IMG/VR virus record: IMGVR_UViG_2563366985_000003
Direction: 5' to 3' (one strand)
Length of the DNA: 48,122 nt
Origin: a virus
Lineage: Duplodnaviria; Heunggongvirae; Uroviricota; Caudoviricetes
The position numbers and the translations under genes are program-made. The notes under the pieces are model-generated. The model saw only the letters and a list, made by a program, of their open reading frames with translations, had not been told where the DNA came from and did not search any database. Below, in pieces: positions 23,091 through 43,377 of the stretch (position 1 is the stretch's first letter; each line of letters opens with the position of its first letter).

Positions 23091-24364
<1,274 letters not shown>

Positions 24365-29590: not shown

Positions 29591-29861
29591 GATGTTACCG
29601 TAGTATGTGAGTATCCATCGAATAGACACCAAGCAAAAAAGCTCCCGAAGGAGCCTTCATTTTCACTTTTTTAAATCCAACGACAGACGGCTGGCATTTA
29701 AGTATTGTGAAATATTATCAAATGTAATCATCATTGATTTACAAAAGATACATTTTGCCCCGAAAGGATTCATGTCAGAAACATCAAAAGATGATGTTCT
29801 ATACTGGGAACCATGACAACACGGGCATCTAAAGTGAATATGGTTTGTAATATTGTCTACC

Positions 29862-30074
29862 TCAAAGCGCCACTACATGAACAGCGGCAGGACCTTTAGG
29901 TCCGTTCTCAATACCAAATTCAACTTCCTGATTCTCAGTTAATGTTTTGAAATCGTTGCTCTGAATTGCTGAGAAATGGACAAACACATCTTTGCTGCCA
30001 TCTTTCGGCGTGATGAAACCAAAACCTTTTTCAGGGTTAAACCATTTCACTAAACCAGTCATTTTGTTAGACAT
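29862..30074 (-). CDS. cspI: Cold shock protein (CspA family)
   Basis: 70 aa, [23 protein letters not shown]...VFVHFSAIQ cold-shock domain. Confidence 0.9.
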
Positions 30075-30436
30075 AATTATTACCTTTTGAAGAAATTAGC
30101 CCTTGGGCAGAATGGTCCGAAAAAAAATATCAGAGAGAAAAACCAACAAGGAAATCTCAAGAGGTACAAATAATAAAATTATAACAATGACTGCTTCAGA
30201 TAAATTTGTAACAAACCAGAACACCATTAACGCATGATTAACCACCCATAGCAAGGATTACTTTTGTAAAGAAAAACACAGCAATGAAAGAATAGCTTTA
30301 TTTATTAATAAAACGTGTCATTCTGATTAAGACCTTTTATCTTACCCTTAAGATTTCAGGAATTTTGGCTCATGGAAGAGTCCTTTTTATTTAAATTTTA
30401 CATTCCGCGATGTAAATGTTCCGATTTAATATTACC

Positions 30437-32460: not shown

Positions 32461-32744
32461 TTTGAGATTGTGGTGCTTTTTGTGGGAGTCATCCACTTAC
32501 GCACTTTGTTTTGCCATGCCAGCAGTTAGCTTCTGCTGTAAAACTATTCATGCAGCAAACCTGCACTTCACCACAATGGTTAGCATACTTTTCCTGATTA
32601 AGATTTTGCCAAATATGCTGGCCATTGTTTCATGTATTGGACCTCCTTAATTTTTATTAAAGAAATCCAATATTCACTACTCTGTCCGTATCTCTACTCA
32701 GGCATCAGCCTTCTTCGTTATCGTATACAGACGAGCGATGAATT

Positions 32745-32960
32745 TTAATCAGTAATGATGACATTTACTGCTGCAGGACCTTTAGCACCACTCTCTATAG
32801 AGAAGGTAACCTTTTGACCTTCAAATAAGGTTCGATAATTATCATTCTGAATCGCAGAAAAATGCACAAACACATCTTTACTACCATCAACAGGAGAAAT
32901 AAAGCCGAAACCTTTATCAGCGTTAAACCATTTTACTAAACCAGTCATTTTATTTGACAT
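32745..32960 (-). CDS. cspB: Cold shock protein (CspA family)
   Basis: 71 aa, [23 protein letters not shown]... cold-shock domain. Confidence 0.9.
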
Positions 32961-33270
32961 TCTACATTCCTTAACTTGAGCCTTTCGGCATAAATGGTTT
33001 GCATAACAGAAACGACTTCGTACTTAATTGGAGAGACTCAAAGAAGGAATAAGTGAATAACACCTGAAATGAGAACTGCTTTAGTAAACTACTTCGTATA
33101 TCGTCTGTTCTTCAAACCGACGCAGTCATTAACTCATAGTTGAACATATGAAGCAATGTTTATTTTAGACATCCAGCCACCTTCAACCCTATCAACAAAG
33201 TAGTTTTCTCCAGGAACGTGTGTATGGTGCACCAGGTTATCAGTATTAAGGAGTTTTTCTGTCCCCTAAA

Positions 33271-36182: not shown

Positions 36183-36208
36183 CCGCCGAAGCGGGTTAAG
36201 TGCGGGTG
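36183..36208 (-). terminator. Intrinsic terminator downstream of hokD
   Basis: AACCCGC-ttcg-GCGGGTT hairpin followed by TTTTTGTTTTT on the minus-strand transcript. Confidence 0.5.
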
Positions 36209-36265
36209 CGTTGAGGATGCCTGTCACATCAGAGGTGGCGAGGGATTTCTCCCTCGCCGGGTCTC

Positions 36266-36421
36266 TTACTCCTCAGGTTCGTAAGCTGTGAAGACAGCGA
36301 CCTCCGTCTGGCCGGTTCGGATTCGTACCTCGCAGAGGTCTTTCCTCGTTACCAGTGCCGTCACTATGACGGTTAAACAGATGACGATCAGGGCGATTAA
36401 CATCGCCTTTTGCTGCTTCAT
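36266..36421 (-). CDS. hokD: Hok-family type I toxin
   Basis: 51 aa MKQQKAMLIALIVICLTVIVTALVTRKDLCEVRIRTGQTEVAVFTAYEPEE. Confidence 0.9.
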   Translation of the reverse strand: MKQQKAMLIALIVICLTVIVTALVTRKDLCEVRIRTGQTEVAVFTAYEPEE

Positions 36422-36611
36422 AGCCTGCTTCTCCTTGCCTTTCGGCACGTAAGAGGCTAACCTACATGTGTCTAGCATGAAATTGGCCTCAGATTAATGT
36501 TAAGCGTCTTGCAGGACGCGTAATGTTAACTGGGGCTTTTCTCTATCTGCCTTTGGTGTTCGTGCCCGAGGCAGATAGCCTCAAGCACCCGCCGTGATTC
36601 TACAAAAACAT
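36422..36611 (-). promoter_or_regulatory. hok mRNA leader (5' tac-like stem-loop, mok-start region; putative antisense sok on opposite strand)
   Basis: Transcript 5' end GCGGGUGCUUGAGGCUAUCUGCCUC... resembles remembered plasmid R1 hok mRNA 5' end; TAGAAT -10 just upstream. Confidence 0.55.
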
Positions 36612-36828
36612 TACCCACCTTTCCAGCAATTCACAACAACTCCATGCAAATAGTAAGTAGAATAATAAGTTATTAGTATTAGCAATTTACTTAGTTTCTA
36701 ATTTGTGCCAATGATTTTCATTTTTGCATGAAAAATACCTTAACATTTTATATTTACTTACTATTTGTAAGCCCCATCAGTTCTTTCTGATGGCGGCTGG
36801 TATTTCAGTTCCAGATATAGTATATGCT

Positions 36829-37857
36829 TTACGCCTTAATAGGGTTAATCACATTTCCGCTATCCGTACCATAGTATTTTTTTGTAGTCATGCCTTGTTT
36901 ATAATAATCATTTAACAGTTTGAGAAAGTTTCTTCCTTGCCTCTCATCTTCTATGACTAATTTACCATGCTCATTGGTCTTAAACTCTTCGTTCTGAAAC
37001 ATTTTTAGCACATCATTCATAGCTTGAACATCATTCTTTTCCAGAGCCGTATGGTTACCTTTCTCAGCGATATGAGTGAGAATTTTTCTCAGTGATGGCT
37101 TATGAAGAATAGCTTGTTCAATAACATCTAAACCTTCAATAAGATCAAGTTCTTTAATTGTATTTAATGTTTTTTGTGCAGCTTCTGTAAACTCAACCTC
37201 CAAGCCTACAATAGCCTCAAAACTTTTCTTATGAAATACATAAAATTGATCTTTTATATAAATACAATCGATTTTGTCATCAAAATTGACTGCGCTGCCA
37301 TCAAATGATCTTAACTCTTTATCTGTTTTATCAAACAAAGCGAATACGCGCTGAGTCATATTTTGTGGTTCATTTGTTGTGACTTTCCCCCTGCTGATTT
37401 TTCGGAAAGAATAAGTGACGTCAGCCCCCTTTTGGACTTTAATACAATAGGCCCACAAATCATTCTGAACCTCAGCAAGAGAGGTAAGTACAACTGGTTT
37501 ATCATTCTTTATATCGTTATTAATAACTTTTGAAAACGATATCGCGTTATTCATAGCATAGGCATAAATCTTATTATCAATATCATCATCAATAACAGTA
37601 TACTTTTTCATCACAATATCATCTTTCGAAGCATGAGAAATAATCTGGTTTGATAAAGTATACTTAAAAAATTTAGCAATATCTGGAGCGATTGGAGCTT
37701 TAATGATTTTAAAATCGAATTTATCAACAACTCTTGCGGTTCTACTCATACCCGCTTTAAGATGTCTAGTAATGAAATACAACGATATTTTCGCCGCATC
37801 ATCATCCTTAAGTTGCTCAGCATACTCTAATAATTCTTCAAGCTTTAACATTTTCAT
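36829..37857 (-). CDS. Candidate defence-module partner protein (342 aa, soluble, no recognisable catalytic motif; KwaB-like size)
   Basis: AT-rich ORF overlapping the upstream membrane-protein gene by 4 bp; function inferred from context only. Confidence 0.6.
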   Translation of the reverse strand: MKMLKLEELLEYAEQLKDDDAAKISLYFITRHLKAGMSRTARVVDKFDFKIIKAPIAPDIAKFFKYTLSNQIISHASKDDIVMKKYTVIDDDIDNKIYAYAMNNAISFSKVINNDIKNDKPVVLTSLAEVQNDLWAYCIKVQKGADVTYSFRKISRGKVTTNEPQNMTQRVFALFDKTDKELRSFDGSAVNFDDKIDCIYIKDQFYVFHKKSFEAIVGLEVEFTEAAQKTLNTIKELDLIEGLDVIEQAILHKPSLRKILTHIAEKGNHTALEKNDVQAMNDVLKMFQNEEFKTNEHGKLVIEDERQGRNFLKLLNDYYKQGMTTKKYYGTDSGNVINPIKA

Positions 37858-38468
37858 TCCTTATGGGATTCAGCATAAAAAAGTTTTGGGCCCACGTCCT
37901 CAACATCAAGAAGATCATCTTCCTCCAAATACTTTGATTTAGTCAAAACCATACCAGTGCGTTTTTTGTCGCTTTCTAAATCCAAATATGTAACTTGATA
38001 TAAAGTATAATTAATACTTATCGTAGGATTTATAAGTATCATGCTTGAATTAATATATATTAAAGCCGTTACCGTTAACAATATTGCTATAGGTATAACA
38101 TTAGTTAAAGTGGATAGATCCTGAAATACAAACGGAATTATATATGTAAAAAGATAGCTTATTGATTCATTGTTTTTATTTTCAATATCTATAACTCTTA
38201 CAGTTCTACCACTAGTGGCGCATCGACGTTTTATATTTTTTAAAAAAATTGTTAATCCTACAATACCAAATAATGATAATACACCAATGACACTGACCGC
38301 GCCAAAGTATTTAAAGAAAATAGTTAATGATTCAACACTTATACCTTTCCAATTTAAATAGCTTCTATAAGTATACAATTGCACAAAACACATGATAAAG
38401 AATAGGGGAAGGTATGACACTATAAATAGCGAAACTCTAGCACCTAAATGTAGTTTATTTACTCTCAT
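37854..38468 (-). CDS. Candidate defence-module membrane protein (204 aa, four predicted TM helices, acidic C-terminal tail; KwaA-like architecture)
   Basis: Four hydrophobic segments (approx. 12-31, 55-76, 103-115, 123-146); AT-rich; first gene of two-gene operon. Confidence 0.6.
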   Translation of the reverse strand: MRVNKLHLGARVSLFIVSYLPLFFIMCFVQLYTYRSYLNWKGISVESLTIFFKYFGAVSVIGVLSLFGIVGLTIFLKNIKRRCATSGRTVRVIDIENKNNESISYLFTYIIPFVFQDLSTLTNVIPIAILLTVTALIYINSSMILINPTISINYTLYQVTYLDLESDKKRTGMVLTKSKYLEEDDLLDVEDVGPKLFYAESHKE

Positions 38469-38608
38469 AACTACCCCACAGCCTACACGTCTAGTATTTT
38501 ATGTTATTTCGAATAATTATGCATCAGATTACAATCCTACAATTGTGCATAAAACGAGCATTTTGCTGATTTTTCTGCGGATGCCTGAGACAGACAACCT
38601 CAAGCACC

Positions 38609-38644
38609 CGCAGCAATTTTACTTAACTCCCGCTACCTCGCCAA
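38609..38644 (-). promoter_or_regulatory. Putative sigma70 promoter and hok-like transcript start driving the two-gene module
   Basis: -35 TTGGCG, 17-bp spacer, -10 TAAAAT, then GCGGGTGCTTGAGG (second copy of hok mRNA 5'-end sequence). Confidence 0.4.
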
Positions 38645-38676
38645 TATGAAATCAATAAGAAAGGTGCTCCATAAAA

Positions 38677-39363
38677 TCACTCCTTCTCTTCTTTATCGTA
38701 GTGGAGTTGACCAATTTTGATAAGAGGGCGTCCCTGAGATTTGCGGTGTAGATTGGTATCGCGCAGAGAATACACACAGCCACAATATTCCTGCTGATAG
38801 AATTTTTCGCGCTTGCTGATTTCAATCATGCGGGACGAGCCGCCCTGCTTGCGCCAGTTATAATCCCAGTACACCATGCCCGGATAATGCGCGACGGCTC
38901 GCCGCCCACAGTCGTTAACCTGCTGCATATTTTTCCAGCGTGAAATGCCCAGTGAACTGCTGATCACACTGAAACCATTTTCAGCAGCGTACAGCGCTGT
39001 CCGCTCAAAACGCATGTCAAAACACATGGTACAACGGATCCCCCTCTCGGGCTCCCATTCCATTCCTTTGGCACGTTCAAACCAGTTGTCTGTGTCGTAA
39101 TCAGCATCAATAAATGGCACGCCGTGTTGTTCAGCAAAGCGAATATTCTCATCCTTACGAATTAAATACTCTTTCTGAGGATGAATGTTCGGGTTGTAGA
39201 AAAAGATGGTATAGTCGATTCCCGAGGCCTGAAGCGCCTCCATCACTTCACCGGAACATGGAGCACAGCAAGAGTGCAGTAGTAGTTTGTTTGCCCCGTT
39301 TGGGAGCTCCAATTTAGGCCGTTTGAAATCAGCAATAGTCATAAATATTTTTATTGGGGTCAT
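38677..39363 (-). CDS. queH: Epoxyqueuosine reductase QueH homologue (DUF208)
   Basis: 228 aa with hallmark motifs [21 protein letters not shown]-terminal YCGCVYS. Confidence 0.8.
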
Positions 39364-39544
39364 GAAAATAGCACAGAGTGTAGCATCAGAGCAGGGCTAT
39401 CGGGAATAGATGTCTAAATCTGGTAATATCTGCTTTTGACGCAAAGCAGACAACCACGCTAGCTCAATCCTGTGCCGTGAAAATGTCAATTCACATCTGA
39501 ACTAATGCTCTTTAATCTAGTTACGTCTATAAATAACGAAAATT

Positions 39545-43314: not shown

Positions 43315-43377
43315 TTTCTGGTGACGTTTGGCGGTATCAGTTTTACTCCGTGACTGCTCTGCCGCCGTTTTTAAAGT
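43315..43377 (+). ncRNA. dicF: DicF small regulatory RNA (ftsZ-targeting sRNA)
   Basis: TTTCTGGTGACGTTTGGCGGTATCAGTTTTACTCCGTGACTGCTCTGCCGCC followed by TTTTT matches remembered DicF. Confidence 0.8.

Follow-up and report, generated by a model that had tools for sequence, protein, structure and literature searches.

A Kiwa Gene Pair as AT-Rich Cargo of an Intact Qin-Type Lambdoid Prophage of Escherichia coli

Two adjacent genes in the window (the whole stretch of 48,122 nucleotides that was analysed) very probably form a two-gene Kiwa anti-phage system, probably also acting against conjugation, which an intact lambdoid prophage of the Qin type carries as its lysogenic-conversion cargo. The computed results themselves show that both proteins belong to the family, by sequence and by predicted fold, that the genes form an operon under purifying selection, that the context is one of mobile elements, defence islands and prophages, and how the cassette is inserted. 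The value as a discovery is small, since tools of the PADLOC type call the locus Kiwa, RefSeq labels are present and a publication of 2025 gave the mechanism for the family. The locus presents an intact Qin-type prophage with Kiwa exactly at the place of relBE in Qin of K-12, and it flags a gap in annotation.

Gene Pair, Base Composition and Prophage Setting

The two open reading frames are located on the minus strand at 36829-37857 (342 aa) and 37854-38468 (204 aa), exactly where a preliminary description of this DNA had placed them. GC content is 0.326 in 36591-38676, compared with 0.482 in the window and 0.489 in the remainder, and no other stretch of 2,086 bp in the window goes as low (mean 0.484, sd 0.064). 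The AT-rich island that had been described is therefore real, with the GC minimum of the window falling on the gene pair.

The host element is an intact Qin-type lambdoid prophage of E. coli inserted in ydfJ, and its minus-strand gene order is cro-like, YdaT, replication gene, DUF977, QueH, kwaA, kwaB, hok/sok, rem, ydfU and Q (ydfT). This order agrees with the position first proposed for the pair, between the replication genes and hok/rem/Q. The remark that K-12 carries relBE there was also correct, since in the K-12 derivative RR1 relE-relB is found directly upstream of hokD. In the Kiwa-bearing prophage, sok was recognized by its Rfam model with 115.7 bits, while similarity to K-12 stops at about window position 36435, and therefore the sok/leader region is absent from K-12.

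Alignment with empty-site and alternative-cargo prophages delimited a variable AT-rich cargo segment of about 2.08 kb (36595..38670, no strand assigned; GC 0.326), with the left breakpoint at ~36594 and homology returning at ~38671. Only kwaA, kwaB and flanking non-coding DNA are found in the segment, which lies between the conserved hok/sok and the stop codon of QueH. No intrinsic terminator was found in a scan of 36200-39500. A 7-bp hairpin (CCATCAG..CTGATGG) without a T-tract can be seen by eye just 3' of the kwaB stop codon, and no claim is made for it.

Identification of KwaA and KwaB

KwaA (37854..38468, minus strand) is a 204-aa inner-membrane protein according to ORF, PADLOC, NCBIfam, PDB and AlphaFold2 (AF2) evidence. 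It matched the PADLOC model PDLC00212 with an E-value of 1.3e-101 over residues 1-203 (profile 2-204 of 205), and 11 further PADLOC KwaA sub-models also matched. Against the solved KwaA (PDB 9mrg_A), the E-value was 3e-6 by sequence and 1.3e-7 with a profile. Homologues carry the precomputed Pfam annotation PF28043 'KwaA', and the motifs ES[IL].[FY]L.TYI[IV]PF and NPT are conserved. The AF2 model (pLDDT 80.2) found its best PDB fold match in 9mrx_A, with an E-value of 3e-12 and TM-scores of 0.78/0.81, and no significant fold other than KwaA was found for it in the PDB with Foldseek. By homology, the protein is assigned as the putative sensor/scaffold subunit of Kiwa.

The topology described earlier held in part. 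Four hydrophobic helices had been proposed; crude hydropathy picked out three segments strongly and a fourth more weakly, while the AF2 model predicts four transmembrane helices at residues ~8-33, ~45-76, ~99-114 and ~121-140, the second belonging to a helix that spans 45-86. The charge distribution is compatible with an N-in/C-in topology. An acidic tail had also been proposed, and residues 160-204 do contain 12 D/E against 7 K/R, but they are predicted to form strands of a beta-barrel and not a disordered tail. Strands are predicted at 88-97, 155-163, 169-176, 186-193 and 196-201, and the strand in the TM2-TM3 loop together with the C-terminal ones would make up a cytoplasmic beta-barrel. 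A Pfam match of KwaA to the holin-like LrgA, with E 0.1 and only 13 of the 28 bits set as cut-off, was rejected as noise.

KwaB (36829..37851, minus strand) is a soluble protein of 340 aa, or 342 aa if an in-frame alternative ATG at 37857 is used. It matched PADLOC PDLC00223 over its full length (E 1.5e-159, profile 1-338 of 339) and Pfam PF16162 with 60.1 bits, above the gathering cut-off of 26.3. The E-value against the solved KwaB (PDB 9mrx_K) was 1.5e-5 by sequence and 3e-9 with a profile. The AF2 model (pLDDT 82.9, pTM 0.71), built like that of KwaA for a single chain, predicts an N-terminal Rossmann-like alpha/beta domain followed by a C-terminal DUF4868/KwaB domain, and its significant PDB matches are KwaB chains only (best E 2e-14, TM 0.64/0.69), with 343-352 aligned columns and TM-scores of 0.60-0.70. 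The N-terminal domain gave no alignment to the solved KwaB with sequence profiles and is covered by the fold comparison only. By homology, KwaB is taken as the probable DNA-binding effector of Kiwa. A weak NCBIfam match of KwaB to retron-HNH (E 0.026, no stretch passing) was likewise discarded as noise.

The layout of a membrane sensor followed by an effector had led to the guess of a Kiwa-family system, and the PADLOC, Pfam and PDB matches, by sequence and by fold, together with the RefSeq labels, support it. The profile searches proposed at that time matched KwaA and KwaB. Since a confident DUF4868/KwaA match was to mean a known Kiwa rather than a new system, the gene pair is an already described Kiwa system, real but ordinary.

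Operon Structure and the Start of kwaB

The genes are adjacent and co-oriented, kwaA then kwaB, as in a Kiwa operon, and the junction is alike in Klebsiella and Vibrio. The Shine-Dalgarno sequence AAGGA for kwaB (37858..37862, minus strand), located in the 3' end of kwaA, was assigned from the junction sequence and its conservation. Its spacing is 6 nt to the ATG at 37851 and 0 nt to the one at 37857, and it is kept as AAGGA or GAGGA at the junction of the Klebsiella and Vibrio orthologous loci. The first ATG (37857) is missing from both orthologues, and nearly all homologues start with ML. Thus, the start of kwaB is most likely the second ATG (37851), giving 340 aa, and the ATGA overlap that had been reported would therefore be incidental. 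The letters of that overlap are present, but the conserved start is the second ATG; the genes are still tightly coupled, with a gap of 2 nt after the kwaA stop codon (a 4-nt overlap with the alternative ATG).

The hok-Type Promoter and the Anatomy of the Insertion

A hok-type promoter, with a leader remnant corresponding to the first ~30 nt of hok mRNA, was located upstream of kwaA (38582..38644, minus strand), with the -35 box TTGGCG at 38644-38639 and the -10 box TAAAAT at 38621-38616. The comparison with prophages without the cassette, which had been suggested from the start, showed besides the breakpoints given above that the promoter segment aligns colinearly with the DNA natively preceding hok in the Kiwa-free prophages E100341 and EC50. 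It is likely that this duplicated promoter drives kwaAB in the lysogen. Promoter-like matches were not enriched in the region (14, where shuffles gave 10.3 +/- 3.5), and the assignment is based on the consensus match and on homology to the DNA upstream of hok rather than on scan enrichment.

A repeat search found the hok-proximal copy of a 41-nt direct repeat, comprising the -10 box and the 5' end of the hok mRNA, at 36563..36603 (minus strand). Its partner is located at 38582-38622, 2,019 bp away, with 80% identity over 41 nt. The exact 14-mer CCTCAAGCACCCGC is present at 36579-36592 and 38598-38611, with 0.01 occurrences expected by chance. The inserted Kiwa cassette is bracketed by a duplicated segment of the hok promoter and leader.

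Distribution and Selection

Among 5,426 complete genomes of E. coli, 156 have the cassette at ≥99% identity, with one copy in each. Contigs with an exact match number 583 for KwaB and at least 1,000 for KwaA. In RefSeq, KwaB is labelled KwaB-like (WP_000915482.1, 'Kiwa anti-phage protein KwaB-like domain-containing protein'), while KwaA (WP_001265627) appears as 'KwaA family protein' in recent records and 'hypothetical protein' in most. PHROGs assigns the two proteins to families without a known function (phrog_11123 and phrog_7312). The cassette DNA gave no match by blastn in distant mode against 50,697 phage records, and it is therefore absent, down to about 65% DNA identity, from the phage genomes on deposit. 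No mention of the protein accession numbers was found in the literature.

Cassettes of the same clade are found in Klebsiella sp., Vibrio cholerae prophages, Aeromonas, Yersinia, Enterobacter and others. These orthologues show 76-87% amino-acid identity, equal lengths and a like junction with Shine-Dalgarno sequence and ATG, and their GC content is low (29-33%) irrespective of the host. Their flanks are host-specific, with DNA homology ending at the ends of the ORFs, and only the E. coli version has the duplicated hok promoter ahead of the cassette. The Klebsiella and Vibrio orthologues have 76-84% amino-acid identity to the E. coli proteins. In Klebsiella, the orthologue lies in a defence island beside DarTG and MazEF. 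In Vibrio, it is found on the opposite strand of a lambdoid prophage, flanked by late-region genes and lysis genes, and a V. cholerae prophage orthologue adjoins a Shedu-domain gene.

Against the Klebsiella and Vibrio orthologues, pN was 0.09-0.14, compared with a saturated pS of 0.68-0.87. Since dS had reached saturation in the comparisons with Vibrio and in most of those with Klebsiella, dN/dS was computable for one pair only (0.055, kwaA of E. coli against Klebsiella), and the other pairs are given as pN and pS. These values point to strong purifying selection on kwaA and kwaB.

Alternative Explanations

The pair could be a true descendant of Kiwa that is inactive or silent in the lysogen, silenced by H-NS or without a working promoter, and so make no contribution to immunity. 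AT-rich DNA can be silenced by H-NS in E. coli, and the GC content of 0.30-0.33, the number of promoter-like matches, which is not above the shuffled expectation, and the lack of a terminator in the scan are in line with this reading. On the other hand, both ORFs are intact with strong purifying selection, the 156 complete genomes hold copies at ≥99% identity, and good -35 and -10 boxes of the hok-type promoter lie directly upstream, conserved with the backbone prophages. In addition, Kiwa systems on clones that kept the native promoter were active in E. coli (PMC11785009). Silence of the cassette is thus considered quite improbable.

An undescribed defence system, Kiwa-like in layout only, was the other option left by the preliminary description. 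Despite the 15-23% identity to solved Kiwa and NCBIfam equivalog scores under the cut-offs, PADLOC Kiwa sub-models match both proteins end to end (E 1e-101 and 1e-159), Pfam KwaB is above its threshold, PF28043 KwaA is found on the homologues, and both predicted folds can be superimposed on those of solved KwaA and KwaB along the full length. This option is not supported and is regarded as extremely unlikely. All significant matches are to Kiwa, and these, with fold matches exclusively to KwaA and KwaB, speak against a non-defence module in the relBE slot, either an addiction module of toxin-antitoxin type or a membrane pair for prophage lysis or superinfection exclusion. The position, which is that of relBE in K-12 and beside hok/sok, would suit such a module, as would the very weak LrgA match of KwaA (E 0.1), but Pfam, NCBIfam and PADLOC gave no significant toxin, antitoxin or holin family, and Kiwa as published protects the cell without abortive infection (PMC11785009). 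A module of that kind is hardly credible.

Proposed Mechanism

In the lysogen, transcription of kwaAB would begin at the hok-type promoter that is duplicated ahead of kwaA. The steps below are those of characterised Kiwa (PMC11785009), and each functional step is inferred for the present alleles. KwaA tetramers in the inner membrane would recruit KwaB dimers into a membrane-attached supercomplex, which would be activated by perturbation of the membrane where an incoming phage attaches or ejects its DNA. The DUF4868 domain of KwaB would then bind the entering DNA without cutting it, so that phage replication and late transcription would be stalled and the cell would survive. DNA mimics of the lambda Gam type would be expected to act as inhibitors.

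It is conceivable, although unlikely, that the clade differs in trigger specificity or in the engagement of KwaB with nucleic acid, and that the hok promoter and leader couple Kiwa to constitutive transcription or antisense control of the hok/sok type. The observations behind a possible clade difference are the 15-23% identity, the Arg to Asn change at a DNA contact and the altered KwaA-KwaB interface residues.

Comparison with Known Systems

The archetype for comparison is the Kiwa system of E. coli O55:H7 RM12579, for which Doron et al. 2018 is reportedly the source. Its structures are available (PDB 9mrx, 9mrg, 9mrr, 9mtn and 9nyu; Zhang, Todeschini et al. 2025, PMC11785009), and five Kiwa systems, those of ECOR8, ECOR12, ECOR49, D9 and Ralstonia, were assayed in the same study (PMC11785009). 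The published data on protection from phages and conjugation, non-abortive and dependent on the two genes together, concern alleles other than the present ones. Neither the name ECOR nor D9 occurs among 60 listed of the 156 E. coli records with the cassette. As here, the O55:H7 system is a two-gene operon with kwaA followed by kwaB, and its folds are matched by the predicted ones (four transmembrane helices and a beta-barrel in KwaA, alpha/beta and DUF4868 domains in KwaB). The KwaA motifs are common to both, and carriage on mobile elements, as found for the present pair, is typical of Kiwa generally.

The two systems differ in sequence, with 15-23% identity in structural alignments, and the present KwaB, with 340 residues, exceeds the 315 of the archetype by about 25. 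Scores against the NCBIfam equivalogs fell below the cut-offs, with 57.7 bits against 200 for KwaB (NF041623) and 81.1 against 100 for KwaA (NF041622). On these scores, the present clade is placed within the Kiwa family but outside the equivalog group of the archetype. It is because of the KwaA score that the protein is still called 'hypothetical protein' in most RefSeq records, which is the annotation gap mentioned above.

HMMER alignment gave equivalents for three residues of the KwaB DNA channel, D169 = D193 (invariant in the clade), K187 = K211 and R233 = R257. R167 of O55:H7 KwaB corresponds to N191, so that one of the four alignable DNA-contact residues is changed; N134 and R142 lie outside the part that can be aligned by sequence. 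At the ICL1 interface of KwaA, K75 is replaced by R, N77 by S and Q79 by R, and D80 has no equivalent. Non-conservation of ICL1 at about 20% identity argues neither for nor against a KwaA-KwaB complex.

The relBE and hokD/relF genes of the defective Qin prophage of K-12 offer a comparison by position. The K-12 element shares the prophage family and the chromosomal site (ydfJ/rspAB) with the Kiwa-bearing prophage, and relBE, like the Kiwa cassette, lies immediately upstream of hokD. Unlike kwaAB, however, relBE is an unrelated type II toxin-antitoxin pair. Other E. coli lambdoid prophages have the same flanks, hok/sok on one side and DUF977 with the replication genes on the other, around a cargo of one or two genes encoding unrelated proteins, some of which replace QueH too. 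Among the occupants are a DUF4209 protein, which is the PADLOC candidate PDC-S39 (E 8e-103), a SIR2-family protein, the Doc toxin, relBE and uncharacterised DUF5677 and DUF7167 genes. The slot between hok and DUF977 in E. coli lambdoid prophages is thus a cargo hotspot, partly defence-related, and the interval from hok to the replication genes could be mined for more defence candidates.

Identification of the Kiwa genes

Two minus-strand ORFs are found exactly where the preliminary description had placed them, at 36829-37857 (342 aa) and 37854-38468 (204 aa), and both encode components of the Kiwa defence system. The larger protein matched the PADLOC KwaB model PDLC00223 (E 1.5e-159, profile positions 1-338 of 339) and the smaller one the KwaA model PDLC00212 (E 1.3e-101, positions 2-204 of 205). 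No other system was matched by either protein in the PADLOC search, the remaining matches being to other KwaB and KwaA sub-models. KwaB also scored 60.1 bits against Pfam PF16162 (KwaB-like, formerly DUF4868; gathering score 26.3), and the NCBIfam equivalogs gave 57.7 bits for KwaB and 81.1 bits for KwaA, under their cut-offs of 200 and 100. A sequence search of the PDB returned Kiwa chains only (9mrx_K for KwaB, E 1.5e-5; 9mrg_A for KwaA, E 3e-6), with E improving to 3e-9 and 1.3e-7, respectively, when clade profiles were used. The preliminary description had guessed at Kiwa from the gene layout and had regarded confident matches as the mark of a known system. Since the HMM searches it proposed matched the KwaA and KwaB models and the DUF4868 family above its gathering score, the known-Kiwa reading is supported and the finding is not new.

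In RefSeq, the larger protein is WP_000915482.1, 'Kiwa anti-phage protein KwaB-like domain-containing protein', and the smaller is named 'KwaA family protein' in the newest annotations. An annotation gap is observed for KwaA (37854-38468), which is a 'hypothetical protein' in most of the RefSeq records listed and carries the family name in some recent ones.

Predicted structures

Structure predictions were based on alignments of 64 KwaB and 59 KwaA homologues. The KwaB model (pLDDT 82.9, pTM 0.71) comprises an alpha/beta domain at the N-terminus and a helical/beta domain at the C-terminus. Its only significant matches in the PDB were six KwaB chains (E 2e-14 to 4e-13; TM 0.60-0.70 over 343-352 aligned columns, 15-18% identity), the best non-KwaB match reaching only E 0.07. 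The KwaA model (pLDDT 80.2) shows helices at residues 8-33, 45-86, 99-114 and 121-140, a strand at 88-97 and four others within 155-201, and it matched KwaA chains only (9mrx_A, E 3e-12, TM 0.78/0.81, 20-23% identity). Published KwaA consists of four TM helices and a beta-barrel from ICL1 and the C-terminus (PMC11785009), and the predicted model shares this arrangement of TM helices and barrel. The four hydrophobic helices described earlier agree with the model, crude hydropathy giving three strong segments and one weak, while the stretch taken for an acidic tail is predicted to belong to the barrel.

Base composition and gene starts

The AT-rich island was reproduced, with a GC content of 0.326 in 36591-38676 against 0.482 for the whole window, the minimum among all 2,086-bp stretches across its 48 kb, for which the mean is 0.484 and the sd 0.064. 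The sequence contains the reported ATGA overlap, but the first ATG of this overlap is absent from the Klebsiella and Vibrio orthologues of kwaB, in which the second ATG (37851) is kept. A Shine-Dalgarno sequence, AAGGA (37862-37858, minus strand), directly adjoins the first ATG and precedes the second by 6 nt, and it is also conserved in these orthologues. Because of this spacing, the conservation of the second ATG and the ML.. start of nearly all homologues, KwaB is most likely a protein of 340 aa (36829-37851), the length annotated in RefSeq.

Insertion site and hok promoter

Comparison with prophages devoid of the cassette, as proposed earlier, placed both of its boundaries. Relative to E100341 (hok followed by QueH) and EC50 (hok followed by a SIR2 gene), the left breakpoint is at ~36594, and homology is regained at ~38671, at a distance of 6 nt from the stop codon of QueH. 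The cassette is bracketed by an imperfect 41-nt direct repeat (36563-36603 and 38582-38622; 80% identity, 2,019-bp spacing), with a 14-nt exact core, CCTCAAGCACCCGC, for which 0.01 chance occurrences are expected. On the minus strand, each copy is made up of the -10 box followed by ~30 nt from the 5' end of the hok mRNA. In the Kiwa-less prophages, the native hok promoter region (-35 TTGGCG, 17 nt, -10 TAAAAT) runs colinear with the kwaA-upstream copy; the hok-proximal copy has the common part only from the -10 box onward, preceded by cassette-specific DNA. The insertion therefore lies immediately downstream of the hok promoter of the backbone, and kwaAB is situated ~30-40 nt beyond the hok transcription start of that backbone. 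The cassette substitutes a promoter and 5' end of its own for those of hok, and kwaAB would be transcribed in the lysogen from the hok-type promoter upstream of kwaA. Matches in a generic promoter scan of the region were not enriched, and a terminator scan of the region found none.

Prophage context and cargo slot

According to the annotation of the E. coli 746 RefSeq genome, near-identical to the window (99.9% identity), the window is apparently an intact Qin-family lambdoid prophage in ydfJ, adjoining rspAB. It carries terminase, portal, capsid, tail, lysis, Q and replication modules, cI/cro-like immunity genes, a RecE-like exonuclease, xis and int, whereas K-12 has only a defective Qin remnant at the same chromosomal site. 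DicF sRNA (43316-43367, plus strand), IsrC sRNA (24158-24280, minus strand) and two thermoregulator leaders of the cspA type, which precede cspB and cspI (32698-33121 and 29835-30220, minus strand), all at Rfam gathering level, are expected content of a Qin-type element.

The minus-strand order is cro-like, YdaT, replication gene, DUF977, QueH, kwaA, kwaB, hok/sok, rem, an unnamed small gene, ydfU and ydfT (Q). QueH (38677-39363, minus strand), an epoxyqueuosine reductase of the tRNA queuosine pathway, is located between Kiwa and the replication module. The protein matched PHROG phrog_3217 ('unknown function'; E 9e-138) from residue 41 of the 228-aa ORF, is a shorter, 221-aa product in RefSeq and had no PADLOC match. 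The hok locus (36266-36594) is complete with sok/leader (Rfam RF01794, 115.7 bits, 36416-36590). The preliminary description had named the relBE position correctly, relE-relB being directly upstream of hokD in the K-12 derivative RR1. In K-12 (L002, 7800-8150), similarity to the window ends at ~36435, where relBE abuts hokD, which therefore lacks the upstream sok/leader regulatory part.

A composite query of both flanks retrieved numerous E. coli prophages in which the slot is occupied otherwise. The variable slot (~36595-39400) extends from hok/sok to the DUF977/replication genes in E. coli lambdoid prophages (K-12, L002; E100341, L004; EC50, L005; and the further loci L010, L011 and L012). 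The occupants observed are Kiwa (the window), QueH alone, a SIR2-family protein with a weak match to SIR2 defence models, a DUF4209 protein (PADLOC candidate system PDC-S39, E 8e-103), DUF5677, DUF7167 accompanied by small ORFs, a Doc toxin, an alpha/beta-hydrolase together with DUF1627 and ATP-binding proteins (the O157:H7 arrangement), ImmA/IrrE plus an HTH protein, and relBE (K-12). The hok/sok-to-DUF977 interval is thus a cargo hotspot, and several uncharacterised occupants could be defence candidates. This hotspot character and the hok-promoter duplication are the sole, mildly noteworthy by-products of the analysis.

Distribution and selection

Of 5,426 complete E. coli genomes, 156 carry the cassette at ≥99% identity, each as a single chromosomal copy. 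The exact KwaB sequence occurs in 583 contigs and that of KwaA in at least 1,000. Homologues of the same clade with 76-87% amino acid identity were found in Klebsiella, Aeromonas, Vibrio, Yersinia, Enterobacter, Pectobacterium, Citrobacter and others, and those of Shewanella and Edwardsiella are 72-77% identical. Comparison with the orthologues of Klebsiella and V. cholerae gave a non-synonymous divergence of 0.09-0.14 per site and a saturated synonymous divergence (0.68-0.87); the sole computable dN/dS is 0.055. Intergenus DNA homology extends from 8 nt upstream of the kwaA start codon to just short of the kwaB stop, so the conserved unit is the two genes alone, with 29-33% GC in every host.

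In the Klebsiella sp. locus (L006, 7333-11055 and 4108-4698), Kiwa is part of a defence island and adjoins DarT, a DarG-like ADP-ribosylglycohydrolase, MazE/PemK and a helicase resembling UvrD. In V. cholerae lambdoid prophages, Kiwa is near a Shedu-domain (SduA_C) gene (L008, 7964-8590) and a Dam methylase. Such neighbours are typical defence-island company. Prophage carriage of Kiwa is common, with 197-198 of ~1,260 dereplicated systems in a published survey (PMC11785009).

Comparison with characterised Kiwa systems

The most likely mechanism is drawn, for every step, from homology to characterised Kiwa systems (PMC11785009; review PMC13434031). On the inner membrane, KwaA tetramers and KwaB dimers would build a fence-like supercomplex, switched on where a phage attaches or ejects its DNA. 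KwaB would then bind DNA via DUF4868 without degrading it, stalling replication and hence late transcription, and the cell would survive. Lambda Gam would inhibit KwaB; the annotation of the resident prophage contains no Gam. Because Kiwa responds to an external trigger, it would not be expected to act when the resident prophage is induced.

In the solved archetype from O55:H7, the KwaB DNA-channel residues D169, K187 and R233 correspond to D193 (clade-invariant), K211 and R257 here, while R167 is replaced by Asn. Conservation of three of the four alignable residues would lend partial support to this mechanism. In KwaA, the motifs ES..L.TYI.PF and NPT are retained, but the residues published for the ICL1 interface are different. 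The pair is a member of the Kiwa family from a clade distant from the O55:H7 archetype, and this clade is already covered by dedicated PADLOC models and RefSeq names, the system being already known.
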